Below are positions 23,020 to 50,332 of a stretch of 64,000 nt of DNA, in pieces. Made by a program: the position numbers and the translations under genes. A model generated the notes under the pieces. It worked only from the letters and a program-made list of their open reading frames with translations, was not told the origin of the DNA and made no database searches. Position 1 is the stretch's first letter. Each line of letters begins with the position of its first letter. The DNA is from Patescibacteria group bacterium (lineage in GTDB: Bacteria; Patescibacteriota; Microgenomatia; UBA8517), in NCBI GenBank assembly GCA_022868165.1, contig JALHYA010000004.1, positions 83,432 through 147,431 on the forward strand, in the 5' to 3' direction.

Positions 23020-24066
23020 ATGGATGCTGCCTCTGCCGAAATTAGTTCATTAGAACAAAAAGTTAAAACCGCAAATATTCCCGATAAGCTCAGGGAAATT
23101 GTAGAAGTTAGACTTGAGCAGTTAACAAAGCTGACAAACTCTCCCACTTTCCTTCCGGAGTTTGACACGATAAGCCGTTATATCGATTGGATAACAACTC
23201 TTCCATGGAACATGCGAACTCAGGACAATTTGGACTTGGAAAACGCCAAGAAGATTTTGGACAAGAACCATTACGGTCTCGCCGATATTAAAATTAGGAT
23301 CTTGGAATATATTTCTGTGATGAAACTAAAGCAAGAGAAAGGAGAAGGGCAAGATATTTACAGAGCTCCAATACTTTGCTTTGTCGGCTTGGTCGGAACG
23401 GGTAAGACTACCATTGCTTTCTCCATAGCCGAGGCTTTGGGCAGAAAGTTTGCCAGGATTCCTTTCGGCGGAATGGGCGACCCGTTGGATTTAAGGGGCC
23501 AGTCGCGAATGCATCCCGAGGCCGAGCCGGGAAAAATAATTAAATCCCTAAAAACCACGCAAAGCAAAAATTCGGTTATCCTTTTGGATGAAATCGACAG
23601 GGTAACGGATATGGGAAGAGCTTCAATAATGGGAGTTTTGGTTGAACTACTGGATCCCGAGCAAAATCACGAATTTATCGATCACTATATCGACTATCCT
23701 TTTTACCTTTCCGAAGCTCTTTTTATTGCTACCGCAAACAATACAACAAATATTTCAACAGCCGTTTTGGATAGGTTGGAGCCTATCGCCATGCCTTCAT
23801 ATTCGGATACCGAAAAAATCGCAATTGGCTCAAGATATGTTTTTCCCAGGGCGCAAGTTCAAGCGGGGATACCACAGGGAGCATTGACGATTGACGAAGA
23901 CGTTTGGCCGTTTATTGTAAGACCTTTAGGATACGATGCAGGTATAAGGACGCTGGAGCGTACAATCGAAGGTATTGTTAGAAAAGTTGCCATGATGATG
24001 GTAGAAGGCAAGGGCAAATCCTTCAGAATTACCCAAGCCAATGTAAAAGAATTTTTGCCCCAGTAA
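23020..24066 (+). CDS. Lon-like AAA+ ATPase module without LON N-domain and without S16 protease domain
   Basis: YIDWITTLPW..LDLENAKKILDKNHYGLADIKIRILEY (Lon pre-AAA helical region). Walker A GLVGTGKTT, Walker B VILLDEIDR, sensor-1 FIATANN, sensor-2/Arg in DAGIRTLER. The ORF ends cleanly after ...VKEFLPQ with TAA, abutting the UDG start. No serine-protease domain. Confidence 0.7.
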   Translation: MDAASAEISSLEQKVKTANIPDKLREIVEVRLEQLTKLTNSPTFLPEFDTISRYIDWITTLPWNMRTQDNLDLENAKKILDKNHYGLADIKIRILEYISVMKLKQEKGEGQDIYRAPILCFVGLVGTGKTTIAFSIAEALGRKFARIPFGGMGDPLDLRGQSRMHPEAEPGKIIKSLKTTQSKNSVILLDEIDRVTDMGRASIMGVLVELLDPEQNHEFIDHYIDYPFYLSEALFIATANNTTNISTAVLDRLEPIAMPSYSDTEKIAIGSRYVFPRAQVQAGIPQGALTIDEDVWPFIVRPLGYDAGIRTLERTIEGIVRKVAMMMVEGKGKSFRITQANVKEFLPQ

Positions 24067-24068
24067 AG

Positions 24069-24692
24069 ATGACGAGAGAAGAAAAACAGAAATTGCTCGA
24101 CGATTTAAAAGAAAAGATGCTCCACGACGAAAGTCTTCCTTTAAAGCATGGCGCGACCAATTTGGTTTTCGGAGAAGGTAACCCGGAGGCACAAATCTTC
24201 TTTTTAGGCGAAGGACCGGGATACTGGGAAGATATTAAAGGAAGGCCCTTTGTAGGGAATGCCGGGGCGCTTCTAAATCAGTTGCTTTATTCGATTGAAT
24301 TGCCCAGGGAGGAAGTATTCATAACGAATGTTGTTTGTTTTCGGCCTCCCAACAATAGGGATCCGGAGCCGGCAGAAATTGAGGCTTTTCAAAAATATAT
24401 TGATGAAATGATAAAAATAATCGGGCCAAAAGTTATTGTAACTTTGGGCAGGTTTTCTATGGGAAAGTTTTTGTCCGGCGCAAGAATTAGTTCTGTCCAT
24501 GGCAAAACTTTCAGAGTAAACTGGAAAGTAAGCGAGATTACTGTGGTTCCCATGTACCATCCCGCTGCCGCACTAAGAAACGGGGAGGTAATGGCGCAGA
24601 TTAAGGCAGACTTTTTGAAGCTGCCGGAGGTGTTAAAGGAAGTTGAAAACTCGGATGAGAAATTATCCTCCGAGCAAATGAGTTTGGTATGA
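24069..24692 (+). CDS. Uracil-DNA glycosylase, family 4
   Basis: ...GATNLVFGEGNPEAQIFFLGEGPGYWEDIKGRPFVGNAGALLNQLL...FITNVVCFRPPNNRDP...MYHPAAALRN (GEGPG and HPS/A motifs of UDG family 4). Confidence 0.8.
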   Translation: MTREEKQKLLDDLKEKMLHDESLPLKHGATNLVFGEGNPEAQIFFLGEGPGYWEDIKGRPFVGNAGALLNQLLYSIELPREEVFITNVVCFRPPNNRDPEPAEIEAFQKYIDEMIKIIGPKVIVTLGRFSMGKFLSGARISSVHGKTFRVNWKVSEITVVPMYHPAAALRNGEVMAQIKADFLKLPEVLKEVENSDEKLSSEQMSLV

Positions 24693-26353
24693 AAGACAAA
24701 CAAACCGCTCTAAAATTTATTGCGCTCTCCGGAACAACGGGAGTGACGGAAAATTTTTATATTTATGAATACGGCGACGATATGATTGTCGTCGATTGTG
24801 GCGTGGGATTCCCCGAGCCCGAAATGTTCGGAGTTGATTTGGTTATTCCGGATTTTACCTATGTAAAAAATAATGCCAGGAAGCTTCGGGGAATTTTGAT
24901 TTCGCATGGACATGAAGACCACTTGGGAGCTTTACCGTTTCTTATGAAGCAGGTAAGAGCTCCAATTTATGCTTCGAAATTGGTAGCAGGTTTAATCAGG
25001 GATAAATTTGTGGATTACGACGCAAAAGTAGACAACCTACAGGTTTTCGACCCGGAAAAAGATATTTTATCGCTTGGAGTTTTTAGGGTTACACCGTTTA
25101 GAGTTTCCCACTCAATTCCGGACGCAGTAGGTTTTTGTATAGATACACCCGAAGGAAAAGTGTTCCATGTTCCGGATTATAAATTCGACTGGACGCCGGT
25201 TGACGACCGTCCGTTTGATATAGCAAAAGCTGCAATCTTGGCATCCAACGATACTTTGGCATTGGCCTCGGACTGTATAGGGGCAACCTCTCCGGGATAT
25301 ACGGAAAGCGAAGCTGCGATAGAAGGAAGAATTGAGGAAATTGTCAGAAAAGCCGTGGGCCAAATTTTCTTTACCACAATTTCCTCAAATATTTCCAGAA
25401 TGCAGCAGGCTCTAAATGTAGCATTAAGGCTTGGCAGAAAAGCAGTTTTTATCGGCCGCTCGATTGATAGAAAGTCCGCGATTGCCAAGGAGCTGGGATA
25501 TCTGCATTATCCGGAAGATTTGGTAATTTCTTCAAAGAAGATAGGCAAAATGCCGAAAAATAAACTTATGTACATTATCTCCGGCAGCTATGGTCAGCCG
25601 GGTAGCGCTCTCTATCGTTTGGCTATGGGAGAACACGAATTTTTGAAGTTAAGTCAGGAAGACGTGGTTGTTTTCTCTTCCGACCCGGCGCCTCCCGGTT
25701 CGAAAGCAAACGTAGATTCTGTTGTGGACAAGCTTATTGAATCCAACGCCGATGTTCATTATTACGACATGCAGGAAGATTTGCATGTTTCCGGCCACGG
25801 AAGCATGAAAGATATAGAAATGTTATTTGCCGTCATTAAACCAAAATATTTTATCCCAATAGGGGGAACAATAAGGCACATGAGGGCATACAGTTTGATA
25901 GCCCAGTCGATGGGAGCAACACCCGAAAGGGTTTTCAAGCTTCTTCCTGGACAAGTTGTTGAATATAAAAACGGCAGTGCGCGGCTGGCCGGGAAAGTTC
26001 AAGTCAAAGATGTCTTGGTTGACGGTCTTGGAATAGGAGACGTAGGAAATGTTGTTTTGAGAGATAGACACATACTTGCCAAGGACGGAATTGCGATAGC
26101 TCTTTTGCAGTTTGATAGGAATGAAGGCAGGTTATTAAGCGAGCCGGATATTTTAAGTAGAGGTTTCGTTTATGAAGCTAAAGGAAAAGATTTTCTGAAT
26201 AAAGCATCCAGGTCTCTTAGACAGGAATTGGATAAACACGGAAAAATCGATGCCAAAAGAACAAGAGATATTTCTATAGACTTTCTTGAAAGATTCTTCT
26301 TTACGGAGATTGGCCGAAGACCAATGGTACTACCTGTAGTGGTAGAGGTCTAA
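24689..26353 (+). CDS. rnj: Ribonuclease J (metallo-beta-lactamase / beta-CASP RNase)
   Basis: ...ILISHGHEDHLGALPFL... MBL motif HxHxDH, beta-CASP region, C-terminal domain. 554 aa. Confidence 0.85.
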   Translation: MKDKQTALKFIALSGTTGVTENFYIYEYGDDMIVVDCGVGFPEPEMFGVDLVIPDFTYVKNNARKLRGILISHGHEDHLGALPFLMKQVRAPIYASKLVAGLIRDKFVDYDAKVDNLQVFDPEKDILSLGVFRVTPFRVSHSIPDAVGFCIDTPEGKVFHVPDYKFDWTPVDDRPFDIAKAAILASNDTLALASDCIGATSPGYTESEAAIEGRIEEIVRKAVGQIFFTTISSNISRMQQALNVALRLGRKAVFIGRSIDRKSAIAKELGYLHYPEDLVISSKKIGKMPKNKLMYIISGSYGQPGSALYRLAMGEHEFLKLSQEDVVVFSSDPAPPGSKANVDSVVDKLIESNADVHYYDMQEDLHVSGHGSMKDIEMLFAVIKPKYFIPIGGTIRHMRAYSLIAQSMGATPERVFKLLPGQVVEYKNGSARLAGKVQVKDVLVDGLGIGDVGNVVLRDRHILAKDGIAIALLQFDRNEGRLLSEPDILSRGFVYEAKGKDFLNKASRSLRQELDKHGKIDAKRTRDISIDFLERFFFTEIGRRPMVLPVVVEV

Positions 26354-26384
26354 TATTGTGCTTCTTGTATAATGTAGTTAAGCC

Positions 26385-28475
26385 ATGGCCAAAAAACACA
26401 GACGCGGTGGAAGAAGGTCATTTAACCTCAAATTAAAAAAGGGGACCGTATATTCGATTGCCCAAGTTGTATTTTTTGCTCTTGCGGGTTTAATTTTTAT
26501 TTCTTTTGCCAGGCGGGGAGCGGCACTTGTTTTTATAAATAACTTTCTGGTTGCAAATTTCTCCTGGACTGTAGTATTTTTGCCTTTTATTTTTCTTGCA
26601 TTTGCTCTTCTGGTTTCCAAAATAAGAACTCCTTTAAGCCAGCCGAATGTGATTGTCGGAGGCTTGTTATTTTTTATTTCCCTTGTAAGTATCTCAAGGG
26701 CGGGGACTGTGGGAAGAGCGGCTTGGGACGGCGTTTCATCTTTGGTTACCGGAGTCGGAGCGTTTATTATTCTTCTCGGACTTTGCATGGTAGGGCTTAT
26801 TGTTCTTTTTAATACCTCAATAGACCAAGTCGTTACTTTTATTCTTTCCTTGTTTAACCAGTCGAGGCGCTACGTTACGGGTGCTCAAACCGGAGGCGGA
26901 GCTTTTACGAGAGGGGGGTTAAAAGTATCCGGCGGCCAGCCTTTTTCCAAAGAACCGGCGAAAAGTTCTCAAAGGGTTAACGAGGAGCCTTTGGCGCCCA
27001 AATTGGTGAGTAATGTTCCAGGAGAAGAACGGGTTTGGAAATATCCGCCGATTAGCCTTCTTAGCGATACCGAAACCGGCAAGGCCGACAGGGGTGACAT
27101 CAAAGGCAACGCCGCAACTATTGAGAAAACCCTTGAATCTTTCGGTATAACGGCGCGGGTTGTTGAAGTTAATATGGGTCCGGCGGTTACGCAATATGCT
27201 CTTGAAGTTGCGCTTGGCACAAAACTATCCAAAATTACCTCACTCGAAAGGGACCTTGCTCTGGCTCTTGCGGCACCCACCGGAACTATAAGAATTGAGG
27301 CCCCAATCCCCGGAAGGAATTTGGTGGGTATTGAGCTTCCAAACCGTTCTCCCGAATTTGTGCCTCTGAGGAAAATGCTCGAATCAAACGAAATGCGCGA
27401 GAGCCATTCAAAATTGGAGGTTTCTTTGGGATTGGATGTTTCTGGGAAGCCAGTTGTTTCGGATATCGGCAGAATGCCCCATGTCTTGATTGCGGGGCAG
27501 ACCGGTTCGGGAAAAAGCGTTTGTATAAATTCTTTCCTGGGCTCTATTCTTTTTAGGGCAACACCTTCGGAAGTTAAATTAATTCTGGTTGACCCTAAGA
27601 GAGTTGAACTTACCGGCTATAACGGTGTTCCCCATCTTCTTTCTCCGGTAATTGTGGAGCCCGAAAAGGTCATTTCGGCCCTAAGATGGATTCTTTCGGA
27701 GATGGACAGGAGATATAAGCTTTTTCAGCAGGCCGGCGTCAGAAATATTGACGCATATAATGAAATGTCAGGTTTCCAGGCTCTTCCATACATAGTTTTA
27801 ATTATCGACGAATTGGCGGATATTATGCTTTTTTCTCCAGTTGAAGTTGAAGACAATGTTACCAGAATTGCACAAATGAGCCGAGCAACCGGAATTCATA
27901 TGGTTTTAGCCACCCAAAGACCCTCGGTCGATGTTATTACGGGACTTATCAAGGCAAATATTCCTTGCAGAATTGCATTTGCCGTCGCTTCACAAGTTGA
28001 TTCCAGAGTTATTCTTGATACTCAGGGAGCCGAGAAACTTCTGGGTCGCGGAGATATGTTGTATCTTCCCCCGGAACAGGCAAAACCGCTCAGACTTCAG
28101 GGCGCATTTGTCTCGGATAGGGAAATAAATCAGCTTGTGGAATTTTTGAAGAATCAGGGAGTTACTCCGCAATATACGGAAGAAGTAATAAAGATGACGA
28201 AATCCGGAGTTCCTCAAGTTCCGGGACTGGATGGGGACATGGATGATTTGTTCCAGGAGGCAGTCAAGACAGTTTGTCAGTATGAAAGAGCTTCGGCCTC
28301 CCTTCTTCAAAGAAGGCTTTCTATTGGCTATGCCAGGGCAGCGCGAATTTTGGACCAGCTGGAAGCCACAGGGGTTGTTGGGCCCGCGGAGGGAAGTAAA
28401 CCAAGAGAAGTTTTGATTCAAAACGCAGATGAATTTTTAAATAGGTCTGCCCCACCCGAGTCTCCGCAGTCATAA
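26385..28475 (+). CDS. ftsK: DNA translocase FtsK/SpoIIIE
   Basis: N-terminal 4-5 TM, linker, motor domain HVLIAGQTGSGKSVCINSFL...LILVDPKRVEL...IVLIIDELADIM, C-terminal gamma winged helix (ASLLQRRLSIGYARAARILDQLE). Confidence 0.9.
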   Translation: MAKKHRRGGRRSFNLKLKKGTVYSIAQVVFFALAGLIFISFARRGAALVFINNFLVANFSWTVVFLPFIFLAFALLVSKIRTPLSQPNVIVGGLLFFISLVSISRAGTVGRAAWDGVSSLVTGVGAFIILLGLCMVGLIVLFNTSIDQVVTFILSLFNQSRRYVTGAQTGGGAFTRGGLKVSGGQPFSKEPAKSSQRVNEEPLAPKLVSNVPGEERVWKYPPISLLSDTETGKADRGDIKGNAATIEKTLESFGITARVVEVNMGPAVTQYALEVALGTKLSKITSLERDLALALAAPTGTIRIEAPIPGRNLVGIELPNRSPEFVPLRKMLESNEMRESHSKLEVSLGLDVSGKPVVSDIGRMPHVLIAGQTGSGKSVCINSFLGSILFRATPSEVKLILVDPKRVELTGYNGVPHLLSPVIVEPEKVISALRWILSEMDRRYKLFQQAGVRNIDAYNEMSGFQALPYIVLIIDELADIMLFSPVEVEDNVTRIAQMSRATGIHMVLATQRPSVDVITGLIKANIPCRIAFAVASQVDSRVILDTQGAEKLLGRGDMLYLPPEQAKPLRLQGAFVSDREINQLVEFLKNQGVTPQYTEEVIKMTKSGVPQVPGLDGDMDDLFQEAVKTVCQYERASASLLQRRLSIGYARAARILDQLEATGVVGPAEGSKPREVLIQNADEFLNRSAPPESPQS

Positions 28476-28481
28476 TTTTTA

Positions 28482-29105
28482 ATGAAAACAATAGGCGAGG
28501 CTATCAAAAATGCCCGGTCGAAGAAAAGATATTCTTTGGCAAAAGTCGAGGACGAGACAAAGATAAAAAAGGAATTTGTAGAGGCAATCGAAAATGAAAA
28601 GTGGGAGCAACTCCCCGAATATCCGGTTCTGGTTGGATTTGTCAAGAATTTGAGCAGATTTTTAGGGTTGGAAGAACGAAGCACGGTCGCGCTTTTGCGC
28701 CGGGATTATCCTCCGAAGAAGCTTTCTATAAATCCCAAACCGGATGTCTCCAGTAAATTTTCGTGGAGCCCAAAACTGACATTTTTTGTGGGAATAGCGG
28801 TTGTACTGGTTGCAATTTTTGGGTATTTGGCATTCCAGTATTACAAGTTTATTACTCCACCCCGCCTCTCGGTAAATGAACCGCAGCAAAATGAGGTAGT
28901 CAAAGTCCGAGATTTCAAGGTTTTTGGCACGACCGATCCTGACGCAACGGTGAGAGTAAATAATCAGCCTGCCTTGGTAAATGACGACGGAAGCTTTACT
29001 GTTGATATTGCAATTTATGAAGGAACAAACGAAATTGTGATAAGTGCAACTTCTCGCTCTGGAAAAACAACCACAATACATCGTAATATAAAGCCTGAAC
29101 TGTAA
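28482..29105 (+). CDS. rodZ: RodZ-like protein (N-terminal XRE-type HTH, single TM, C-terminal beta domain)
   Basis: MKTIGEAIKNARSKKRYSLAKVEDETKIKKEFVEAIENEKWEQLP (HTH), then TM LTFFVGIAVVLVAIFGYLAF, then extracytoplasmic domain. Confidence 0.5.
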   Translation: MKTIGEAIKNARSKKRYSLAKVEDETKIKKEFVEAIENEKWEQLPEYPVLVGFVKNLSRFLGLEERSTVALLRRDYPPKKLSINPKPDVSSKFSWSPKLTFFVGIAVVLVAIFGYLAFQYYKFITPPRLSVNEPQQNEVVKVRDFKVFGTTDPDATVRVNNQPALVNDDGSFTVDIAIYEGTNEIVISATSRSGKTTTIHRNIKPEL

Positions 29106-29362
29106 TGGACGGAGTTCAAACACTTTTAGTAATCGTAGTAGTTTCTTTAACCCTTCTTCTTTTGGTGGTCGGAATTCAGGTTTTGATGATAATTATCGAT
29201 TTGAGGAAAGCAATAAAGCGGCTAAATAGTATTTTGGAGGATGCAATTTTGGGGGGAGGTTTAATCCGGCCCGAAAAACTTACAGGCGTAGTTGAAATTT
29301 TCAGAAAAAATAAAAAGATGGAAACCTTCGGCCAGGAATCTTCTCCTCACACTCCCAAATGA
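29105..29362 (+). CDS. Small hypothetical membrane protein (one TM)
   Basis: TAATG overlap with the rodZ-like stop. TM LLVIVVVSLTLLLLVVGIQVLMIIIDL. No homolog recognised. Confidence 0.35.
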   Translation: MDGVQTLLVIVVVSLTLLLLVVGIQVLMIIIDLRKAIKRLNSILEDAILGGGLIRPEKLTGVVEIFRKNKKMETFGQESSPHTPK

Positions 29363-29387
29363 CCTCCATTCGTCGTATACTTTAGCC

Positions 29388-31199
29388 ATGACCACGGACG
29401 AAATTCGCGAGAGGTATTTGAAATTTTTTGAAGGCAAAGGACACGTTCGAATCGAGCCTGCCCCTCTTGTATTGGAAAACGACCCCACCACCCTTTTTAC
29501 TTCGGCCGGAATGCAGCCTCTTATTCCTTATCTCAAAGGAGAACCGCACCCAAAAGGGAAAAGGCTTGTCGATTCTCAGCTCTCATTGAGACTCCAAGAT
29601 ATCGAAGAAGTCGGCGATAATCGTCATACAACATACTTTGAGATGTTGGGCAACTGGTCTTTAGGAGATTATTTCAAAAAGGAGCAGCTCGAGTGGTGTT
29701 TGGAGTTTTTTACCAAAGAATTGGGATTGCCCAAAGAGAAACTTTGGGTTTCGGTTTTTGAAGGAACGAAGGAAGTTTCTAAAGACGAAGAGTCGGCATC
29801 GAGATGGAAAGAATTGGGAATCCCCGAAGATAGAATTTTCTTTTACGGAGTCGACAAAAATTGGTGGAGTAGAAGCGGGGAGCCGGATAAAATGCCGGCC
29901 GGGGAAATTGGCGGCCCGGATTCGGAAACCTTTTTCGATTTTGGAACGCCGCACAACCCTAAATATGGCAAGGAGTGCCACCCGAACTGCCAATGCGGAA
30001 GGTTTTTGGAAATAGGCAACTCGGTTTTTATTCAATACCAGAAAAACAAAGACGGAACTTTGTCCGAACTTCCACAGAAAAATGTCGATTTCGGAGGGGG
30101 GCTCGAAAGAATTTCCGCCGTCGTGGATGGTTTATCCGATGTTTTCCTGATTGATGTTTATACCCCAGTTATCAAAGTTTTAGAAAAAGAGACTGGGATT
30201 AAATATGGTTCCTCGGATGGAAACACAACCAGCTTCAGAATTATCGCCGACCATTTAAGGGCGGCTGTAGCAATTGCCAGCGAGGGGGTCGAACCGTCAA
30301 ACCGCGGGCAAGGATATATTTTAAGAAGACTGTTAAGAAAAGCAATTGTCCGTTATTCGCGATTAACAGACAAAGAAATTAAAGATTTTCTAAAGTCTAA
30401 TAGCCTGGACACAATTGTCGAGGCTCTAGGTGGGGCAAAGGTAAAAGAGTTATTCCAGGCAGAGTGGGACAAATTCGAAAGAACGTTTTGTACAGCCTAT
30501 CCTGCGATTATGAAACTGGCTACGAGAGAAAATAATATAGTAAGCGGAGAAGAAGCTTTCGAGTTATTCGAATCTCACGGTCTGTTGCCAGATGTCCAGA
30601 AGGAGGTTTTAGAGACAAGATTTGGAAAAAGAATCGATTGGGATAAATTTAAAGAACTTTTTGAAAAACACCAGGAGCAATCAAGAACCGCCTCTGCCGG
30701 TATGTTTAAAGGTGGACTAGCGGATACATCGGAAGAAGTAACCAAACTCCATACGGCAACACATCTTTTACACGCGGCCTTAAGAAAAGTTTTGGGCGAA
30801 CACGTTTCCCAAAAAGGTTCAAATATTACTGCCGAAAGGCTTCGATTCGATTTTTCGCACCCACAGAAACTGACGGAGGAAGAAATCAAAAAGGTCGAAG
30901 ATTTGGTTAATGAACAAATTAAAGAAGATTTGCCCGTCTCTTTTGAAACAATGAGCCTGGACGAGGCAATCAAAAAAGGCGCACTCCATTTCTTCGGGGA
31001 AAAATACGGCAAAGAAGTCAAAGTCTATACAATTGACCCTTCGACTCGCCCTGCTCGCTCAGGACTTGCTCCCTTTAGTCGCGAAGTTTGCGGGGGACCC
31101 CACGTTTCCCACATCGGCGAGCTTGGCCGTGTTAGAATTATTAAACAAGAAAAGGTCGGGGCAGGCATAGTTCGAATCTATGCCACAACCGGAAAATAA
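29388..31199 (+). CDS. alaS: Alanine--tRNA ligase (short form lacking C-Ala domain)
   Basis: MTTDEIRERYLKFFEGKGH...NDPTTLFTSAGMQ (class II catalytic core). Editing-domain motifs HTATHLLHAALRKVLG and CGGPHV. The ORF-track start 29292 was trimmed to the homologous N-terminus. Confidence 0.9.
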   Translation: MTTDEIRERYLKFFEGKGHVRIEPAPLVLENDPTTLFTSAGMQPLIPYLKGEPHPKGKRLVDSQLSLRLQDIEEVGDNRHTTYFEMLGNWSLGDYFKKEQLEWCLEFFTKELGLPKEKLWVSVFEGTKEVSKDEESASRWKELGIPEDRIFFYGVDKNWWSRSGEPDKMPAGEIGGPDSETFFDFGTPHNPKYGKECHPNCQCGRFLEIGNSVFIQYQKNKDGTLSELPQKNVDFGGGLERISAVVDGLSDVFLIDVYTPVIKVLEKETGIKYGSSDGNTTSFRIIADHLRAAVAIASEGVEPSNRGQGYILRRLLRKAIVRYSRLTDKEIKDFLKSNSLDTIVEALGGAKVKELFQAEWDKFERTFCTAYPAIMKLATRENNIVSGEEAFELFESHGLLPDVQKEVLETRFGKRIDWDKFKELFEKHQEQSRTASAGMFKGGLADTSEEVTKLHTATHLLHAALRKVLGEHVSQKGSNITAERLRFDFSHPQKLTEEEIKKVEDLVNEQIKEDLPVSFETMSLDEAIKKGALHFFGEKYGKEVKVYTIDPSTRPARSGLAPFSREVCGGPHVSHIGELGRVRIIKQEKVGAGIVRIYATTGK

Positions 31200-31205
31200 T
31201 ACCTC

Positions 31206-33377
31206 ATGGATTTAAAGAGCATTTTAGGTGGCCGCGAAGAAAAAAGCAGAGAGCTCTACTGGGCTTTGGTAATTGAACCCTCTTGGATTCAAGCTGGTAT
31301 TTGGGAAATTGTTGCCGGTAAAGCAAACGTAACTTCAATCAGTCCCTCCGCGGCTTGGGAAACCGAAGAGGAAATGATTGCCGCTGCGGATACCGCCCTA
31401 TCGGCTTCTGTTCAAAGCCTTCCCGAAGAAGCCCCCGAGCCTTCAAAGACGGTTTTTGGCGTTGCCTCCCTATGGGTTGCCAATGGACAGATTAAAGATG
31501 AATATCTTTCAAAAATCAGGAAAATCTGTGCGGAACTTTCTCTCCAACCTGTTGGTTTTGTCGTAATTCCGGAAGCGGTTGCCCATCTTGTCAAATCCGA
31601 AGAATCCACCCCCCTAAACGGGATAGTTGTAGGCATCGGGGCTGAAGAACTGGAGCTTTCCCTCTTTAGATTGGGAAACCTGATAGGAACAACGCAGGTT
31701 TCAAGAAGTGTTTCTTTGGCAGAGGATGTTACCGAAGGGCTTACCCGCTTTAACCAAACGGAGCCTCTTCCTTCAAGAATTTTGATTTATGACGGTAAAG
31801 AAGGAGAGTTGGAGGACGAAAGGCAAAGCCTGATAAAAACAAATTGGGAAGATTTCGAGAAGCTTAAATTTTTGCATACTCCAAAAGTTGAAGTCTTGGA
31901 GCCGGATAGAAAGGTTCTGGCAACATCATTGGCTGGAGCATCGGAGATTGCTAATGTTTCTGCGGTCGAAAGCCCGAAAGTAGAACGCTTTACCGGGGAG
32001 GACGAAACCCAGGAAGACGTAGAAAACGTAAAGGCTCCGGAAAAAGAAGTTACCGCAGAGGAGCTGGGGTTTGTGGTTGGACAGGATGTCAGAACAAACC
32101 AAGAAGTGCCGCAGCCAGTTGCCCCAACTTTACCCCCGAAGGAAATTCCTCGTCCTGCCGCAAGCGTTCGTCATCTCAAGCCGCCCGCCATATTAGGTTT
32201 TTTTAAGAAAATCCATTTGCCGAAATTCCGGTTGCCGATTTTGGGAACTCAGCCATTTATTGTCGCCGGAATTTTCCTTGGTCTTCTTTTTATTGCAGGT
32301 TTTATCTATTGGTGGACCGTTCCAACTGCCGACGTAACAATCTTTGTTTCTCCCAAGAAATTGAATGAGAATGTTTCGATGAAAATTTCCACCAGTGTGA
32401 CCAATCCGGATATAAACGCCAAGGTTCTTCCCGGCAAAGTTTTGACGACTGATGTTTCGGGAGATAAGACAATCCAAACGACCGGCACAAAGGTGATTGG
32501 GGACAAGGCAAAGGGCTCGGTGAATATAAGAAACGGAACTGCATCTGCCTTGGATCTTCCGGCCGGAACCGTAATTTACGGAACAAACGATCTTCAGTAC
32601 ACCCTGGATCAAGAAGCTTCGGTTTCGGCACAAATTTCCCCGGGTACCCCCGGCACAGCGACCGTTAACGTGACTGCTTCGGATATCGGCACTCAATATA
32701 ATTTGGATAAGGACGTGTCTTTTAAGGTTTCAAATTATCCGCAGTCAGTGGTCGATGCCGTTTCGACCGCAACATTCGCCGGGGGTTCGAGCCGTGATAT
32801 TTCTTCGGTTTCCGAAGACGACCAAAAAAATTTGGAGAAAACGCTTACCGATGAACTTTTGGATAAGGCTAAAGATAAACTGTCCAAATTGGTTGACCAA
32901 GGAATGTATTTTGTTGGCGACGGCCTTGTTTTAACAGAAGTATCGAAAGATTTCAGCAACAAAGTTGGAGACGAGGCCTCAAATCTTAAACTTTCGCTTT
33001 CCCTTAGTGTCCAGGGTTTGGAGGTAGATAAAAAAGCATATGTGGAATTGGCCAAATCCGCTCTTTCCGCGAAAGCTCCCTCGGGGTTTGTTTTAAGGGA
33101 AGACCAAATAAAAGGAAATTTCGATTTCAAGAAAAAAGACGGCAACACTTATTTTTTCGACATAGCATTTAGCGCCAACTTGCTTCCACAAATAAACACG
33201 GCGGATATCACAAAGAACATTGTTGGGAGGCAGCAATCCGTTGCGGAAACCTATCTTACCAGTATTCCCGGCTTCTCGCGGGTTGATATTAATCTAAAAC
33301 CCCGTCTGCCGGGAAGACTCGGAAGCCTTCCGAGAATAGAAAAGCATATTCATATCACTATTGACTCCGAACGATGA
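31206..33377 (+). CDS. Large bitopic membrane protein: cytoplasmic domain with faint actin-like (PilM/FtsA-like, degenerate) features, one TM, large extracytoplasmic beta-rich domain
   Basis: About 340-aa N-terminal domain (ELYWALVIEPSWIQAGIWEIV...; VVGIGAEELELSLFRLGNLIGTT... reminiscent of actin-fold phosphate motifs but degenerate), TM FIVAGIFLGLLFIAGFIYWW, about 350-aa exported domain. 4-nt overlap with the downstream sortase gene. Confidence 0.4.
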   Translation: MDLKSILGGREEKSRELYWALVIEPSWIQAGIWEIVAGKANVTSISPSAAWETEEEMIAAADTALSASVQSLPEEAPEPSKTVFGVASLWVANGQIKDEYLSKIRKICAELSLQPVGFVVIPEAVAHLVKSEESTPLNGIVVGIGAEELELSLFRLGNLIGTTQVSRSVSLAEDVTEGLTRFNQTEPLPSRILIYDGKEGELEDERQSLIKTNWEDFEKLKFLHTPKVEVLEPDRKVLATSLAGASEIANVSAVESPKVERFTGEDETQEDVENVKAPEKEVTAEELGFVVGQDVRTNQEVPQPVAPTLPPKEIPRPAASVRHLKPPAILGFFKKIHLPKFRLPILGTQPFIVAGIFLGLLFIAGFIYWWTVPTADVTIFVSPKKLNENVSMKISTSVTNPDINAKVLPGKVLTTDVSGDKTIQTTGTKVIGDKAKGSVNIRNGTASALDLPAGTVIYGTNDLQYTLDQEASVSAQISPGTPGTATVNVTASDIGTQYNLDKDVSFKVSNYPQSVVDAVSTATFAGGSSRDISSVSEDDQKNLEKTLTDELLDKAKDKLSKLVDQGMYFVGDGLVLTEVSKDFSNKVGDEASNLKLSLSLSVQGLEVDKKAYVELAKSALSAKAPSGFVLREDQIKGNFDFKKKDGNTYFFDIAFSANLLPQINTADITKNIVGRQQSVAETYLTSIPGFSRVDINLKPRLPGRLGSLPRIEKHIHITIDSER

Positions 33378-43925: not shown

Positions 43926-46088
43926 ATGGCAGAGCAAGCAAGGAAAAAAGCAGCTATGATTGTGACGGTTACCAAAGACCGCGATGTTCCATTGGAAAGA
44001 ATAAGAAATATCGGAATTATCGCCCATATCGACGCCGGCAAAACCACGACAACCGAGCGGATTCTTTTTGAGACAGGCAAGACATATAGGATAGGCTCGG
44101 TTGACGAAGGAACAACGGTTACAGACTGGATGGCGCAGGAGCGCGAGCGCGGAATTACTATCGTTTCCGCAGCCATCACTACCTTCTGGGACCTGAAAAA
44201 CAAATCTTCTGTCGAGCCAGGCCATTATCGAATAAATATCATTGACACTCCGGGACATATCGACTTTACCGCAGAGGTTGAGAGGAGCTTGAGAGTTTTG
44301 GACGGGGCGGTAATGGTTTTTGACGGTTGTACGGGAGTTGAATCCCAGTCCGAAACCGTTTGGCACCAGGCAGATAAATATAATGTTCCAAGAATTTGTG
44401 TTCTTAACAAGCTAAATCTTATTGGGGCGGATTTTGAGGGAAGCATCAAATCCATCCACGAGCGCCTTGGGGCAAATGCTAGCCCAGTGAATATTCCTAT
44501 TGGGGTTGAACATGCCCATAGAGGAGTAGTTGACCTTATCAAAATGAAAGCCTTTACTTATAAAGACATTTCCGACAATAAGCTTACCGAGGAAGAAATT
44601 CCGGCTGACTTGGTCGAAGAAGCTAAAAAATACAGGCACGAGCTTATAGAAAAAGTTGCTGAGTACGACGATGTCGCTCTTACAAAATATCTCGAAGGCC
44701 AAGAGCCAACAGAGGAAGAATTGAAAAGGGCAATAAGGGCCGGGGTTGTGGCCGGCAGGTTTTTCCCAATTTTTGGCGGGGACAACAGGACCGTGGAGGT
44801 TCAGATTCTTTTGGACGGCGTTGTGGAATATCTTCCTTCTCCTTTGGACTTGCCTGCAGTTATCGGAACTAATCCCAAAACAGGCGAGAAAGAAACCAGA
44901 GAAAGGAAAAACGAGGTCCCCTTTAGCGCCTTGGCATTTAAGGTTATGACCGATCCTCACGTTGGCCGTTTAGTCTACTTAAGAATTTACTCCGGCAAAC
45001 TTTCAACGGGCCAGGTTATTTATAATTCAACCTCCCAGAAGCAGGAAAGAATAGGAAAGTTGGTTCTTTTGCATGCTGACCAGAGGGAGCTTATCGAAAA
45101 CGCATTCGCCGGAGAAATAGTGGCTGCAGTCGGAATCAAAGATACCACAACCGGAGATACTCTTTGCGACCCGTCCAGTCCGATTCTTCTTGAGTCAATT
45201 TCTTTCCCGGAGCCCGTTATTTCTTTGGCCATTGAGCCGGCAACAAAGAGCGACCAGGAAAAAATGGGCATGGCTTTAGGTAAACTTTCCGACGAGGACC
45301 CGACCTTTAGAATTAAATCCAACCCCGAAACTGGACAAACAATAATTTCCGGAATGGGAGAGTTGCAGCTTGAGGTTCTTGTGGACAGAATGAAGCGCGA
45401 ATTCGGAGTTGTTGCCACAACCGGAGCCCCACAGGTTGCCTATAAGGAAACGGTTAAAAAAATTGGTCAGGGAGAAGGGAAGTATATTCGCCAAACTGGA
45501 GGAAGAGGGCAATATGGGCATTGTTTACTTCGGGTTGAGCCTCGCGGGCGCGGTGAAGGATTCGAATTTAAGAGCGAAATAAAAGGTGCTGCAATTCCTT
45601 CCGAATTTATTCCTGCTATCGAAAAGGGAGTCAAAGAGAAGATGGAGAACGGAATTATGGCGGGTTTCCCAATGGTCGATATATTGGTGGCGGTTTATGA
45701 CGGGAGCTTCCACGAAGTCGACTCCAGCGAAATAGCCTTCAAAATCGCCGGTTCTTTGGCGGTTGAAGAAGCGGCCAGAGCCGCCGAAATGATACTTTTG
45801 GAGCCCATTATGAAACTGGAAGTTTCCACCCCGGAAGAGTTTATGGGAGATGTCATCGGAGATTTATCCTCTAAGCGCGCCCAGATTCAGGGAACGGAGA
45901 AAAAGGGAAAAATGACGGTTATTTTGGCCCAGGCACCATTGGCCGAGCTTTCCGGGTACGCCACAAAGCTGCGTTCGATTTCTCAAGGAAGAGCCAGCTA
46001 TTATATGGAGCCTTCTCACTACGAAGAAGTTCCCAAAAATATTGCCGAGCAAATAGTTGCCAAGAGCGGGAAGCAACCTGCCTCTTGA
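43926..46088 (+). CDS. fusA: Elongation factor G
   Basis: G-domain [22 protein letters not shown]...[10 protein letters not shown]. 720 aa. Confidence 0.95.
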
Positions 46089-46162: not shown

Positions 46163-47362
46163 ATGGCAGGTGAAGCAAAACAAAAATACGTTAGATCTAA
46201 GCCGCACGTAAACGTTGGAACCATCGGTCATGTTGACCATGGTAAAACCACTTTGACAGCGGCTATTACCTCTGTTTTATCCAAACAGCCCGGCAATCCT
46301 ACAAAAGCCCTTAAATTTGACGAAATTGATAATGCTCCAGAGGAAAAGGAAAGAGGAGTTACTATCAATATTTCCCACATAGAGTACGAAACAGACAAGC
46401 GCCACTATGCTCATATTGACGCTCCGGGACACGCCGATTACATAAAAAACATGATTACCGGTGCGGCACAGATGGACGGAGCAATATTGGTTATCTCCGC
46501 AGCCGATGGTCCAATGCCTCAAACCCGCGAGCATGTTATTTTGGCCAGACAAGTCAATGTTCCCGCAATCGTGGTTTTCTTAAACAAGGTTGATACGGTT
46601 GATGACCCCGAAATTATTGATTTGGTTGAAGCTGATGTTCGTGATCTTCTTAAGAAATACGAATATCCCGGAGATGAAGTTCCGATAATCAAAGGAAGTG
46701 CTCTTAAAGCCTTGGAGGGCGATGCTGAAGCCGAAAAGCAAATTTTGGAGCTTATGAAAGCAGTAGACGAATACATTCCGGAACCTAAACGCGATGTTGA
46801 TAAGCCCTTCCTGATGCCTATAGAGGATATTTTTGCAATCAAGGGTCGCGGAACGGTTGTTACCGGCCGCGTAGAACGCGGTAAATTAAAGGTTAACGAG
46901 GAAGTTGAAATCGTCGGACTTAGGGAAACCAAAAAAACGGTTGCAACCGGGCTTGAAATGTTCAGAAAAACTTTGGACGAAACTCAGGCAGGAGACAATG
47001 TAGGAGTTCTTTTGAGGGGAATTGAAAAAGACGATGTTGAGCGCGGACAGGTTTTGGCAAAGCCGGGCACAGTTACTCCTCATACGGAATTCGAAGCCGA
47101 AGTTTATATTCTTTCTAAAGAGGAAGGTGGAAGGCATACACCGTTCTTTACCGGATACAAACCGCAATTTTATGTAAGAACAGCCGATATTACCGGAGAA
47201 GTTAAGCTTCCGGAGGGAATTGAAATGGTTATGCCTGGAGACAACGCCAAAATGCACATCAAACTCATTCAGCCCGTATCTATGGAGGAAGGTTGGAGAT
47301 TTGCTATTCGTGAGGGCGGACAAACCGTTGGAGCCGGCGCCATCACAAAGATAGTTGCGTAA
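46163..47362 (+). CDS. tuf: Elongation factor Tu
   Basis: ...[21 protein letters not shown]...[25 protein letters not shown].... Confidence 0.97.
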
Positions 47363-47372
47363 AGCACATTAA

Positions 47373-47681
47373 ATGCCTACTGGTAGACTTCGCGTCAAGC
47401 TTAAAAGCTACGACCACCGCGTCATTGACGAAGCGGCTCTGAAGATATTGGATTCAGTTTTGGCTACCGGGGCAAAGATTATTGGTCCGACCCCTCTTCC
47501 TACCAAAAGAACTCTCATGGCTGTCAAAGAATCTCCTTTTACGGATAAAGATGCCCAGGAACATTACGAAATATTGGTCCACAAGCGCCTGATTGACATT
47601 CTGGACCCTTCCGAACGCACAATCGACGCCCTTAGCAATCTCGACCTCCCTGCGGGGGTGTCAATCGAGATAAAGATGTAA
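47373..47681 (+). CDS. rpsJ: 30S ribosomal protein S10
   Basis: ...RLRVKLKSYDHRVIDEAALKILDSVLATGAKIIGPTPLPTKR...HYEILVHKRLIDIL.... Confidence 0.9.
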   Translation: MPTGRLRVKLKSYDHRVIDEAALKILDSVLATGAKIIGPTPLPTKRTLMAVKESPFTDKDAQEHYEILVHKRLIDILDPSERTIDALSNLDLPAGVSIEIKM

Positions 47682-48804
47682 GTTTTGTTTTCGTAAGCAG
47701 GTAAACGTTTATTCCCCACAAAATTACGGCTCCATAAAATTGGTTAGACAAAAGCAATATTTTCGGAAAACCTAAATATAGAGAAGGATTTTTGAAATTC
47801 CAGCTAACCAGTAAATAGGCGACTCCTAGTAAAATCCACAACCAAATTTTCTTTATAGTCAAAGCGTATCTACAAAGAACGACGAACGGAAAGATTAGCC
47901 AGACAAAGTGATGTTGCCAGGAGAGTGAATCAACCAAAAGAAGAGAGATAAGGAAAAGTGAAAACAGTAGTTGTTTGTTATTTTTCTTAAAAGCCAAGAA
48001 GGAGCTTGACCCAACAACCAAGATAGAAATCAAAATTGTGGCGAGCCCTCGAATAGTAGGGTTCTGTGTAAGCCTAGAAATAAAACCAGAGATGCCTTGG
48101 TTATAATAAACTTCCCTGCCACCCATTCCCAAAAGGGGAGGAAAAACCTTTTCTATCCAGTACTGATAAAGTGCAATATTTGAGACTAAGATTGAAAGAA
48201 GAAAGCCTCCGATTAGGGTGCCAAGAATATACAAAATTACTCTCCGTTCGTGCTCCAGCAGGAAAAATAAAAGAAGAAATCCAAATATTGGTTTGGAGAT
48301 AATACTCAACCCTAATAGTATTCCGGCAATTTTGTAACTTCTTCTAAGATAAAAATAGAAACCCGAAAGAAGAATGAAAAGCGAAATTGTGTTTACCTGC
48401 CCCATGCCTAGAGTATATTTTGTTGGGAAGGCTGTGAGAGCCAAGAATAGAACAAGTAGAAAATAATGCCATGGAATTTTGTCGAAAGTGATTTTTAGAG
48501 AAATGAGGGCTGTTCCCACAATTGAAGCGAATGACAGTAAAATGAATATAGCCTGAGCGTATCGATAAAAAATTAGGGACAGAGGAATATAAAATACTAG
48601 TGTTATGGGAGGCTGGAGTAACTGATAGACAAGATCAGGGTTACTGTATAGATTTTTCCTGGCCAGGAAATCTTTTGAGGCCATCCAGAAAACAGAGAAG
48701 TCTGGAGCGGTTGTAGAAACTATTTTGAGAATTGACCAGCAAATCCAGGCAAAGCTGAACAAAAATAGAACTACAACTGCTAATTTCAGCAATCTCCTGC
48801 TCAT
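47632..48804 (-). CDS. Polytopic membrane protein, GT-C/DUF2029-like glycosyltransferase, inserted antisense between rpsJ and rplC
   Basis: 390 aa, about 11 TM. ...SYKIAGILLGLSIISKPIFGFLLLFFLLE... resembles the GT-C modules at 1432-4957. Its 3' end overlaps the rpsJ 3' end convergently by 50 nt. Confidence 0.55.
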   Translation of the reverse strand: MSRRLLKLAVVVLFLFSFAWICWSILKIVSTTAPDFSVFWMASKDFLARKNLYSNPDLVYQLLQPPITLVFYIPLSLIFYRYAQAIFILLSFASIVGTALISLKITFDKIPWHYFLLVLFLALTAFPTKYTLGMGQVNTISLFILLSGFYFYLRRSYKIAGILLGLSIISKPIFGFLLLFFLLEHERRVILYILGTLIGGFLLSILVSNIALYQYWIEKVFPPLLGMGGREVYYNQGISGFISRLTQNPTIRGLATILISILVVGSSSFLAFKKNNKQLLFSLFLISLLLVDSLSWQHHFVWLIFPFVVLCRYALTIKKIWLWILLGVAYLLVSWNFKNPSLYLGFPKILLLSNQFYGAVILWGINVYLLTKTKLTSLSRLTPPQGGRDC

Positions 48805-48824
48805 TTGGCGCTAGTATACCACCC

Positions 48825-48853
48825 TTGCAAGCTTGAGCCTGCTCTGATATAAT
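48825..48853 (+). promoter_or_regulatory. Promoter restarting the ribosomal protein cluster (TTGCAA-N17-TATAAT with extended -10 TG)
   Basis: TTGCAA 48825-48830; TGATATAAT 48845-48853. Confidence 0.5.
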
Positions 48854-48919
48854 TTCGCCATCGTGGAGGTGGTTTTCTCGAATTAACCACTGTTTAGAAT
48901 TGCGGGACGGCGTTTACAA

Positions 48920-48941
48920 GGTGCCTCCGGCACCTTTTTTT
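48920..48941 (+). promoter_or_regulatory. Hairpin GGTGCC-TCC-GGCACC followed by a U7 tract, 13 nt upstream of the rplC ATG
   Basis: Seen in sequence. A canonical intrinsic-terminator shape placed inside the S10-operon leader, i.e. attenuator-like. Confidence 0.45.
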
Positions 48942-48954
48942 GTGTCTTTAAAAA

Positions 48955-49734
48955 ATGATTAACACTATTTTAGGAGAAAAAGAGAAAATGAGCCAGGCCT
49001 TTGTCAAGGGACTGCGAGTCCCGGTGACTAAAGTTTTGGCCGGTCCGTGCGTGGTAACACAAGTTAAAAAGATGGATAAGGACGGATATTGGGCTGTTCA
49101 GCTAGGCTTCGGACAAAAGAAAATCAAAAATGTAAGCAAAGCTCTTCAAGGACACCTCAAAGCCATAATTAAAGAAGGAAAAGCCCCAAGATATATCGCA
49201 GAAGTCAGACTAGACAAAGAACCTGAATTCAACGTCGGAGACGAAATTAAAGCCTCCGACATTTTTCGTGTTGGAGATGTCGTAAATGTAACCGGAATTT
49301 CCAAAGGTAAGGGCTTTGCAGGAGTAGTTAAAAGGCACCACTTCCACGGCGGACCCCATACTCACGGTCAATCCGACAGGGAACGCGCCCCCGGTTCAAT
49401 CGGTCAAACCACCACACCCGGAAGAGTTCTCAAAGGAAAGAAAATGGCCGGAAGAATGGGAGGAGATACGGTAACCGTCAGAAACCTTCATATTATTTCC
49501 GTAAATCCCGAGACAAACGAAATTCAAATTTCAGGCCAGATTCCGGGAATACCCGGCGGATTTGTCCGTGTCAAAAGAGTTCATGCAGGGAGCCTTGAGG
49601 AATTGGAACACGAGACAGTCGAAAAAATAGTCGAAGGTGAGGCACCCGCCGGAGAAGGCGGGGAGGCGGCAGGGGCGGAGGGACAAGTTCCGTCACCGGA
49701 GGTGCCCAAACAGGAGGAAAAAGCAAATGAGTAA
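48955..49734 (+). CDS. rplC: 50S ribosomal protein L3 with Glu/Ala-rich C-terminal extension
   Basis: MINTILGEKEKMSQAF...VVNVTGISKGKGFAGVVKRHHFHGGPHTHGQSDRERAPGSIGQTTTPGRVLKGKKMAG.... Confidence 0.9.
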   Translation: MINTILGEKEKMSQAFVKGLRVPVTKVLAGPCVVTQVKKMDKDGYWAVQLGFGQKKIKNVSKALQGHLKAIIKEGKAPRYIAEVRLDKEPEFNVGDEIKASDIFRVGDVVNVTGISKGKGFAGVVKRHHFHGGPHTHGQSDRERAPGSIGQTTTPGRVLKGKKMAGRMGGDTVTVRNLHIISVNPETNEIQISGQIPGIPGGFVRVKRVHAGSLEELEHETVEKIVEGEAPAGEGGEAAGAEGQVPSPEVPKQEEKANE

Positions 49735-50332
49735 AGTTGACGCATATTCGGCCAAGGGAACTAAACTTCCCGCATTCACACTCCCTAAGGGATTTGAAGA
49801 AAAAGGGAGCATGAATCTGTTGGCCCAAGCAATCAGAGTTTATGAAGCAAGAGGTCATTTTGGATTGGCAAAGGCACAAACCCGAGCCGAGGTCAATAGA
49901 ACAAAGAAAAAGGTTTACAAACAAAAAGGCACCGGTGGAGCCAGACACGGAAGCCGAAGCGCTCCGATTTATGTAGGAGGCGGAAAAGCCCACGGCCCGA
50001 GACCTGTTGAGCGTGCTTTACACCTGCCGGAAAAGATGAGGCAAAAAGCTCTGAAAATTGCATTGGGGCTAAAAGTTGCAGACGGCAAAGTGGTTTTTGT
50101 CAGTGATTTGGGAAAGATTAAAAAGACGAAAGAAGCACAAAACTTGATGGATAAAATAGGTGCCAAAGGAAGAGTAGTTTTTGTTTTGAAGGGCGAAGTA
50201 TCAAAAAAATCGTTTATAAATATTCGGGGCTCACAGGTAATTTTTTACAGGGACCTTAATGCATACAATGCCTACTTGGGAGGAACTTTAATTTTCGACA
50301 AAGCCATTTTTGAGAAAGAGGCGAAGAAATGA
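49727..50332 (+). CDS. rplD: 50S ribosomal protein L4
   Basis: MSKVDAYSAKGTKLPAFTLP...TRAEVNRTKKKVYKQKGTGGARHGSRSAPIYVGGG.... SD GGAGG upstream. ORF-track start trimmed. Confidence 0.9.
   Translation: MSKVDAYSAKGTKLPAFTLPKGFEEKGSMNLLAQAIRVYEARGHFGLAKAQTRAEVNRTKKKVYKQKGTGGARHGSRSAPIYVGGGKAHGPRPVERALHLPEKMRQKALKIALGLKVADGKVVFVSDLGKIKKTKEAQNLMDKIGAKGRVVFVLKGEVSKKSFINIRGSQVIFYRDLNAYNAYLGGTLIFDKAIFEKEAKK

Follow-up and report, generated by a model that had tools for sequence, protein, structure and literature searches.

The window analysed here, a 64-kb stretch of contig JALHYA010000004.1, comes from a genome of the Patescibacteria that is Microgenomates/Woesebacteria-like, and in it the genes for ribosomal proteins S10 (rpsJ) and L3 (rplC) are parted by a gene on the opposite strand encoding a membrane glycosyltransferase of family GT87. 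The boundary that parts the str operon from the 'S10' operon probably falls, in this lineage, one gene further on than it does in E. coli. We think it likely that rpsJ belongs to the str-tuf unit, that rplC heads an operon of its own controlled by an attenuator, and that the spacer between the two is a permissive insertion site.

The order of elements in the window is tuf, rpsJ, an opposite-strand open reading frame (ORF) of 390 amino acids, a promoter-like site, a hairpin followed by seven U residues, and rplC (Table 1). An earlier note on this DNA, made from the sequence alone, had described these elements, and its coordinates proved accurate to the base, including the convergent overlap of exactly 50 nt (47632-47681) between the GT87 ORF and rpsJ. 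The placement of rpsJ close behind tuf was likewise borne out, with rpsJ starting 10 nt past the tuf stop codon. No terminator 3′ of rpsJ was called in the signal scan of the window. Between the GT87 gene and rplC there is an intergenic stretch of 150 nt, and the GT87 gene is the sole opposite-strand gene within ~50 kb of co-directional genes. For rplC the ATG at 48955 was favoured over the ATG at 48988 (the start chosen by the gene caller in locus L001), because the TIGR03625 model aligns from residue 5 and relatives align from residue 1.

The rpsJ-rplC junction was compared across 80 loci retrieved around S10 relatives (species-representative genomes) and 80 loci retrieved around L3 relatives (metagenomes), a check that the earlier note had proposed, and the split arrangement was found to be largely typical of the lineage. 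Close relatives were taken as the 34 loci with an S10 at least 75% identical to that of the window, which are Woesebacteria/Microgenomates-like Patescibacteria, and distant loci as the 63 with an S10 less than 60% identical. In not one of the 34 close relatives was the spacer 100 nt or shorter; it measured 101-260 nt in 13, 261-500 nt in two and more than 500 nt in 19, reaching 3.4 kb. Among the distant loci a spacer of 100 nt or less was present in 28/63, including Thermotogota, Cloacimonadota, Clostridia and Melainabacteria, and rpsJ and rplC lay 0-80 nt apart in the retrieved loci from outside the Patescibacteria. The split junction was also seen in some loci labelled as Saccharibacteria. 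Close linkage of rpsJ to tuf is nothing unusual, the spacer between them being 9-62 nt in 31 close relatives (median 25 nt). Record titles are unreliable as taxonomy here: many 'binchicken' metagenome-assembled genomes (MAGs; L005, L007, L009-L011, L018, L019 and others) are titled 'uncultured Gammaproteobacteria bacterium', yet share 60-90% identity with the Woesebacteria-like window in S10, tuf and L3.

In relatives without an insert, the -35 box of the rplC promoter starts 9-18 nt past the rpsJ stop codon, and the shortness of this stretch argues that it is inter-operon DNA, in which related genomes have time and again acquired or retained unrelated genes. In the window the same stretch holds the opposite-strand GT87 gene, with a candidate -10 box back to back with the rplC promoter. 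The cargo found in the gap of other loci is mutually unrelated and comprises an FtsJ/TlyA-like methyltransferase, NUDIX hydrolases, an NAD-epimerase with an unannotated membrane protein beside it, peptide deformylase, an AAA_14/DUF4143 ATPase, a histidine phosphatase, Fic, a metallophosphoesterase, DUF7736 and an insertion sequence (IS) element. The IS element, an IS-type transposase with an rve_3 integrase core and a helix-turn-helix ORF (L104:1220-2328), lies in a locus whose S10 is 90% identical to that of the window and is direct evidence of mobile DNA landing at the junction. The methyltransferase (motif SRAGEKLQFAL) occupies the gap of seven loci on the strand of the ribosomal protein (r-protein) genes; it stands just upstream of the rplC promoter in all six of these loci that were scanned for promoters, adjoins an antisense GT87 gene in L170, and may be an old resident of the junction. 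The epimerase, an NAD-dependent sugar epimerase, forms a divergent pair with a polytopic membrane protein of 325-329 amino acids (L007:4709-6600 and L097:1944-3826). The latter had no Pfam match; its resemblance to GT87 was weak (hhalign probability 35%), and a GT-C identity is not claimed for it, but it may represent one more gene for envelope glycans at this position.

The second line of evidence is the DNA directly ahead of rplC. The predicted promoter combines recognizable hexamers, a spacing within 16-18 nt and conservation at orthologous positions, as expected of a sigma-70-type promoter. Taken by itself, the promoter scan was not significant (5 sites found versus 3.3 expected); the pattern TTGC..N..TGnTATAAT was, however, conserved at the equivalent position in more than 40 related loci, and in 31/34 close relatives. 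Within the 260 nt ahead of rplC, these more than 40 loci share a series of elements that starts with this promoter pattern and RTG-GAGGTGGTT, and continues with the hairpin GGUGGUU/AACCAC, then the motif GGAUGUGCC, which is conserved, the GC-rich hairpin GG(C/U)GCC-UCC-GGC(G/A)CC and 6-8 U residues. By its stem, its U-run and its position before the first cistron, the last hairpin resembles an intrinsic terminator placed as an attenuator. A simple scan recovered the order promoter then terminator in 27/34 close relatives, whereas of 27 distant loci whose spacer did not exceed 100 nt, none showed either signal.

A covariance model (R1) was built from an 11-sequence seed, the leaders were re-aligned with Infernal, and ~1.09 Mb was searched on both strands at E ≤0.05. 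Matches were found in 34 loci, one in each and always directly upstream of rplC, and the match in the 64-kb window was the only one there. In the alignment of the 34 leaders 88.9% of cells were paired, compared with 38-62% when partners were slid, the alignment itself having been fitted to the structure. Changes on both sides were present in 7/14 leader pairs, and the covariation score was reached by 0/500 shuffles. The first hairpin (P1) was paired in 79% of cases over the 34 sequences, with changes on both sides at 4/6 pairs; the terminator stem was paired in 96%, one of its pairs being C-G in 19 sequences and U-A in 15. RNAalifold, applied to a MAFFT alignment of 39 leaders, returned no structure, the variable loops having misaligned the 3′ arm. 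Neither in the window nor in 17 related loci did any Rfam 15 family reach its gathering score, and at 47300-49100, with E up to 10, the best matches were unrelated small RNAs at E ~1. The literature searches that were made found no report of the rpsJ/rplC split or of an rplC leader in Patescibacteria.

Other Patescibacteria clades have conserved promoter-leader-terminator arrangements of their own before rplC, unlike the window type and likewise without an Rfam match, which appear to be analogous leaders. One type, from a Levy/Gottesman-like clade, contains …CAGGAGGTGATTGTAGCTACATAG…GCGACTCTATGTGGTCGCTTTTTT, and another, from a Moranbacteria-like clade, contains …CGTTCAAGTCC…GGATACTAAGCGAGCCAG…CCAGTTTTTTGTTTG; the loci concerned are L143 (~3800-4000), L144, L140, L139, L154, L166 and L134, and L042 (~4300-4450), L044, L039, L050, L059, L061 and L070.

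These observations are consistent with a model in which rpsJ would be the last cistron of an rpsL-rpsG-fusA-tuf-rpsJ unit, and rplC would head a separate transcription unit with a conserved sigma-70-type promoter and a structured leader of ~88 nt ending in an intrinsic terminator. Polymerases starting at the rplC promoter would have to pass this terminator. Its U-run ends 12 nt ahead of the rplC ATG, leaving no room for a promoter, which argues that the essential rplC operon is transcribed through the hairpin. Since no terminator follows rpsJ, read-through from tuf-rpsJ would reach the leader too, crossing the GT87 gene in antisense and then meeting the same hairpin. The fraction of polymerases reading through would set expression of the rplC operon, and would probably be adjusted by one of the operon's r-proteins, L4 for example, by analogy with the S10 leader of E. 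coli, or by translation of a 7-codon upstream ORF (uORF). The data show which genes are present, that promoter, leader and terminator are conserved, and that the junction varies; the attenuator role of the leader, its transcription start and its effector are what we infer from the sequence. More tentatively, and as something that may be true without being the likelier outcome, the ~88-nt element could be an undescribed class of r-protein leader specific to Woesebacteria/Microgenomates-like Patescibacteria, attenuating in response to free r-protein or to ribosome availability sensed by the uORF, and the boundary shift could have made the junction a lineage-wide insertion hotspot.

Within this model there is a variant, rather unlikely in our estimation, in which no r-protein binds the RNA. 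Here the nearly leaderless 7-codon uORF (M-E-V-V-x-x-x) would be translated, and ribosome occupancy of P1 and of the Shine-Dalgarno (SD)-like GGAGGUG would decide whether the terminator forms. A start codon falls in the same alignment column in 34/34 leaders (GTG in 23, ATG in 11), 7-12 nt past the -10 box; the uORF has exactly 7 codons in 24/34 with TAA or TAG as the stop, and departures from that length are mostly by whole codons. SD-independent initiation is also plausible in this genome, as about half of the window genes checked lack an SD sequence. Set against this, the commoner start (23/34) is GTG, a codon that in model bacteria initiates leaderless translation poorly, conservation is lacking at codons 5-7, and the same conserved bases form P1 and the SD-like motif, so that constraints on the RNA could explain their conservation.

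As to translation signals in the window, no SD-like sequence was present within 20 nt of the gene starts at 35847, 43926, 46163, 47373, 48955, 50629 and 51384, and the SD-less genes, about half of the highly expressed genes checked, are rpoB, fusA, tuf, rpsJ, rplC, rplB, rpsS and rpsC. The rplC leader carries a perfect GGAGGUG ~85 nt upstream of the rplC start.

A different reading of the same element is that the hairpin and U7 are a plain terminator or insulator of upstream transcription, or that promoter, 88 nt and terminator make up a stand-alone small RNA gene. Relatives without an insert have no separate terminator after rpsJ, so the hairpin must there also end or attenuate str-tuf-rpsJ transcripts, and in several relatives rplC lies 30-120 nt past the U-run, a distance into which a second promoter could fit. 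However, the order is promoter then terminator and not the reverse, and when genes are inserted the element always stays with rplC and never with rpsJ. The window and many relatives with short spacers, moreover, leave no room for another promoter. We regard this reading as quite improbable.

We next consider the inserted gene itself. The 390-amino-acid product matched Pfam PF09594 (GT87) over profile positions 4-234 of 237, with E=3.6e-21 and a score of 76.5 bits where the cut-off is 25. Its homologues numbered 258; all those listed contain the GT87 domain, and the named sources among them are Patescibacteria, Microgenomates or Woesebacteria. An exact-sequence look-up of the product gave no match, the database copy (P0001) starting 4 codons later. 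The protein has ~8-10 hydrophobic segments, and an alignment of 12 sequences showed the invariant motifs PDF (D35), GMGQ, YNQG and SWQHHF. An AlphaFold (AF2) model (predicted local distance difference test, pLDDT, 83; predicted template modelling score, pTM, 0.85) was compared with the PDB using Foldseek, which returned PimE as the best match (TM 0.71-0.76), followed by PIG-M, ALG3, ALG6 and ArnT. The ratio of non-synonymous to synonymous substitution (dN/dS) was 0.21-0.23 against the two closest orthologues. Taken together, the data argue that the ORF is a real, functional GT87 gene of GT-C fold under purifying selection, consistent with the opposite-strand polytopic GT-C glycosyltransferase that the earlier note had described.

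The closest characterized protein is mycobacterial PimE, a GT87 alpha-1,2-mannosyltransferase dependent on polyprenyl-phosphate-mannose (PDB 9dm5 and 9dm7), which belongs to the same Pfam family and has a fold onto which the predicted one superposes. The 12-sequence profile matched the PimE structure 9dm5 (E=1.1e-17), and a single-protein phmmer search of the PDB gave no match. P34-D35-F36 is invariant in the 12 homologues and follows the first helix, so that D35, in the first loop, is a candidate counterpart of the catalytic Asp that GT-C enzymes carry in their first extracytoplasmic loop. The two proteins differ in that sequence identity is only ~20%, and orthology to PimE was rejected, since the NCBIfam equivalog NF009915 scored 42.7 bits against a cut-off of 413. 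The donor of the window enzyme is probably a polyprenyl-phosphate sugar. The window also encodes an 837-amino-acid PMT-family protein (protein O-mannosyltransferase-like, GT39-like, GT-C; 2444-4957) and a LytR-CpsA-Psr protein (388-1428). These fit an envelope built with lipid-linked sugar donors and a genome with several such enzymes, and the GT87 gene is an ordinary member of a family widespread in the group.

At the C terminus of the GT87 protein the final ~14-16 residues fall outside the alignment with homologues, residues 375-390 have a pLDDT below 50, and the conserved core ends near 47686, leaving the final 50 nt as a non-conserved tail antisense into rpsJ. Elsewhere the overlap is shorter (21 nt in L002, 11 nt in L085 and L170). 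Because its length varies and the tail is not conserved, the overlap is best seen as incidental, set by the position of the first stop codon in antisense, and not as a conserved feature. At the other end, the candidate extended -10 box lies 9 nt upstream of the GT87 ATG, with 6 nt between it and the rplC -35 box; the TGnTATACT box is also kept in L002 and L085, and is absent from the consensus-scan calls. If used, it would imply a very short leader or a leaderless GT87 mRNA. No promoter element travelling with the gene was common to its different genomic contexts.

GT87 genes lie antisense in the rpsJ-rplC gap in at least four deep lineages, namely the window clade, L169 (order rpsJ, TPR protein, 158-amino-acid protein, PKD protein, GT87, rplC), L170 (rpsJ, GT87, FtsJ, rplC) and L092. 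In three readable lineages (L003, L087 and L171) the gene lies outside this gap. L171 is syntenic with window positions 23020-29946 save for a GT87 gene (L171:4001-5107, ~51% identical) antisense between RNase J and FtsK, a site at which the window (26353-26385) has only a 31-nt spacer. GT87 is thus found at more than one intergenic site, and at each it runs antisense within a housekeeping array that is otherwise co-directional. Between these lineages the GT87 proteins share only 42-53% identity.

The earlier note had read the window differently, as an insertion with a new promoter that breaks one of the most conserved gene adjacencies in bacteria. On this view a recent and unusual insertion would have split an intact rpsJ-rplC operon, and a promoter would have arisen, or come with the insert, to rescue expression of rplC. 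The tight adjacency in loci from outside the Patescibacteria, the isolation of the GT87 gene on its strand and its lower GC content (36-39% vs 44-48%) speak for it. However, rplW is similarly low in GC, the compositional evidence for a foreign origin is weak, and no flanking repeats, target-site duplications or mobile-element genes were found around the window GT87 gene. The gene is under purifying selection, its divergence across three assemblies parallels that of its neighbours, and it occurs at the same site in other deep lineages. No close relative keeps the intact adjacency, and in 21/34 the spacer exceeds 260 nt, with varied cargo. That rplC has its own promoter-like site and hairpin-U leader was upheld, but the same promoter and leader precede rplC in relatives without an insert and in relatives with other cargo, which contradicts this view. 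As promoter, leader and terminator are present regardless of the insert, they are older than the GT87 gene here, and the promoter is not new. The split, promoter and leader being typical of the lineage and GT87 being recurrent, an unusual break is unsupported, and we judge it very unlikely.

The metagenomic origin of the sequences had also raised the possibility of a chimeric join at 47600-48960, of which the chance is negligible, as misassembly is excluded by three independent assemblies with the same arrangement: a 38-kb Logan contig (SRR19116065) has the same gene order and is identical to the window, two JGI contigs from other samples (3300056905, 52 kb; 3300032053, 15 kb) carry diverged versions in which GT87 (86% and ~87-90% identical to the window, respectively) and its neighbours diverge in parallel, and related arrangements occur in NCBI MAGs L169 and L170.

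Several observations weigh against our reading of a shifted boundary with an attenuator and a permissive spacer. Transcription start, termination and read-through are all deduced from sequence features. The window leader alone folds no better than shuffled sequences (z = -1.0). Alternative pairings (the middle motif with the 5′ or the 3′ arm of the terminator, and GGAGGUG with the YGCCUCC of its loop) are 77-89% complementary, with covariation no higher than in shuffled columns; antiterminator and SD/anti-SD-like pairings are therefore not claimed, being complementary without covariation beyond the expectation for conserved columns. The sampling consists of two 80-locus retrievals by S10 or L3 similarity, which sketch the breadth across Patescibacteria. 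Finally, junction and non-junction GT87 sequences interleave in a star-like, poorly resolved neighbour-joining tree, from which one ancient insertion with later losses or moves cannot be told apart from repeated insertion.

Table 1. Coordinates of the genes and signals at the window junction, and of methyltransferase genes in the gap of related loci
Feature	Position	Strand	Basis or remark
fusA	43926-46088		
tuf (EF-Tu)	46163-47362	+	Pfam GTP_EFTU plus D2 and D3; penultimate gene of the putative str-tuf-rpsJ unit
rpsJ (S10)	47373-47681	+	Pfam Ribosomal_S10, E=5e-28; NF001861, E=6.7e-36
GT87 gene, 390 amino acids	47632-48804	-	Pfam GT87; polytopic membrane glycosyltransferase (PimE-like, GT-C fold)
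Candidate extended -10 box of GT87 (TGgTATACT)	48813-48821	-	Read from sequence
Predicted rplC promoter: TTGCAA (48825-48830), 17-nt spacer, TGaTATAAT (-10 48848-48853)	48825-48853	+	10/12 matches, extended -10
rplC leader RNA, ~88 nt	48854-48943	+	Covariance model R1, 80.7 bits, E ~1e-13
uORF-like element, GTG GAG GTG GTT TTC TCG AAT TAA	48863-48886	+	7 codons + stop
SD-like GGAGGTG	48865-48871	+	Inside uORF-like element
Leader hairpin P1 (GTGGTT ... AACCAC)	48869-48890	+	In minimum-free-energy and centroid folds
Predicted terminator hairpin AAGGTGCC-TCC-GGCACCTT (8 bp, loop UCC)	48918-48936; T7 48937-48943	+	Signal scan
rplC (L3)	48955-49734	+	TIGR03625, E=3.6e-69; heads rplC-rplD-rplW-rplB... 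operon
FtsJ/TlyA-like gene	L009:4690-5253	r-protein strand	
FtsJ/TlyA-like gene	L011:5679-6233	r-protein strand	
FtsJ/TlyA-like gene	L012:4300-4845	r-protein strand	
FtsJ/TlyA-like gene	L101:895-1449	r-protein strand	
FtsJ/TlyA-like gene	L127:2292-2915	r-protein strand	
FtsJ/TlyA-like gene	L130:2723-3271	r-protein strand	
FtsJ/TlyA-like gene	L170:3389-3940	r-protein strand	

Some further features of the window were recorded. At its C terminus L3 runs ~50 residues past the bacterial L3 model, which covers residues 5-207 of 259, and this extra part (49575-49734) is rich in Glu, Gly, Ala and Pro. The longest rplD ORF (GTG at 49637; 49637-50332) overlaps the 3′ end of rplC, and the later start set by the gene caller gives a protein of 201 amino acids. 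Within the co-directional housekeeping run, positions 31206-33377 encode a 723-amino-acid protein in which a Baseplate_J-like domain was weakly matched (E=1e-6). Neither tRNA nor tmRNA was detected in the window by ARAGORN, and the window contains no 23S rRNA.

Two things are of some interest beyond this genome, the probable shift of the operon boundary and the conserved rplC leader, which neither Rfam nor the literature searched contains. rpsJ and rplC serve as syntenic ribosomal markers for binning and placing uncultivated bacteria, and the block that holds them is commonly treated as contiguous. Within this large group of uncultivated bacteria it is routinely interrupted at one defined point, which affects gene calling, operon prediction and the extraction of markers from contigs. 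Besides gene order, then, the operon boundary can move in the most conserved gene cluster of bacteria, with an archaeal-like split between tuf-S10 and L3 as the result. The conserved promoter, leader and terminator are a testable candidate for the control of ribosomal protein synthesis in Patescibacteria, and a genetic system exists for one group of these organisms (PMC10633639).

The arrangement can be compared with three known systems. In E. coli the S10 leader acts through L4-mediated transcription attenuation and translational repression, with L4 and NusA (PMC3616713, PMC10931766), and the element is confined to Gammaproteobacteria (PMC3616713). The likeness lies in the layout, a promoter and a structured 5′ leader whose last hairpin is a terminator just before the first cistron of an L3-L4-L23-L2... 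operon (PMC3616713, PMC10931766). In contrast, the window leader precedes rplC and not rpsJ, and has ~88 nt and two covarying hairpins where the E. coli leader has five hairpins in ~170 nt; the two leaders showed no detectable similarity in sequence or structure, and no Rfam family scored better than E ~1.

In archaea it is the rule that S10 follows EF-1alpha, apart from L3, which heads an L3-L4-L23-L2 cluster of its own (PMC10833476). The archaeal str/L30e cluster (…S12-S7-(EF-2)-EF-1alpha-S10) resembles the window in that S10 stays with the EF-Tu/EF-1alpha gene and L3 is separate (PMC10833476). It differs in that both units in the window remain chromosomal neighbours, parted only by the promoter-leader and a variable insert, and in that the window lineage is bacterial, the likeness being either inherited or convergent. 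A tufA-rps10 linkage may also exist in cyanobacteria and plastids and is not counted as evidence here.

Lastly, insertions into the conserved cluster are reported to occur between operons (PMC8046335), foreign or relocated genes entering at operon boundaries and the new order being variably kept (PMC8046335, PMC6735719). The window junction likewise gains genes at a boundary; here, however, that boundary lies after rpsJ and not before it, and it is occupied in most of the close relatives sampled, by many different cargos.

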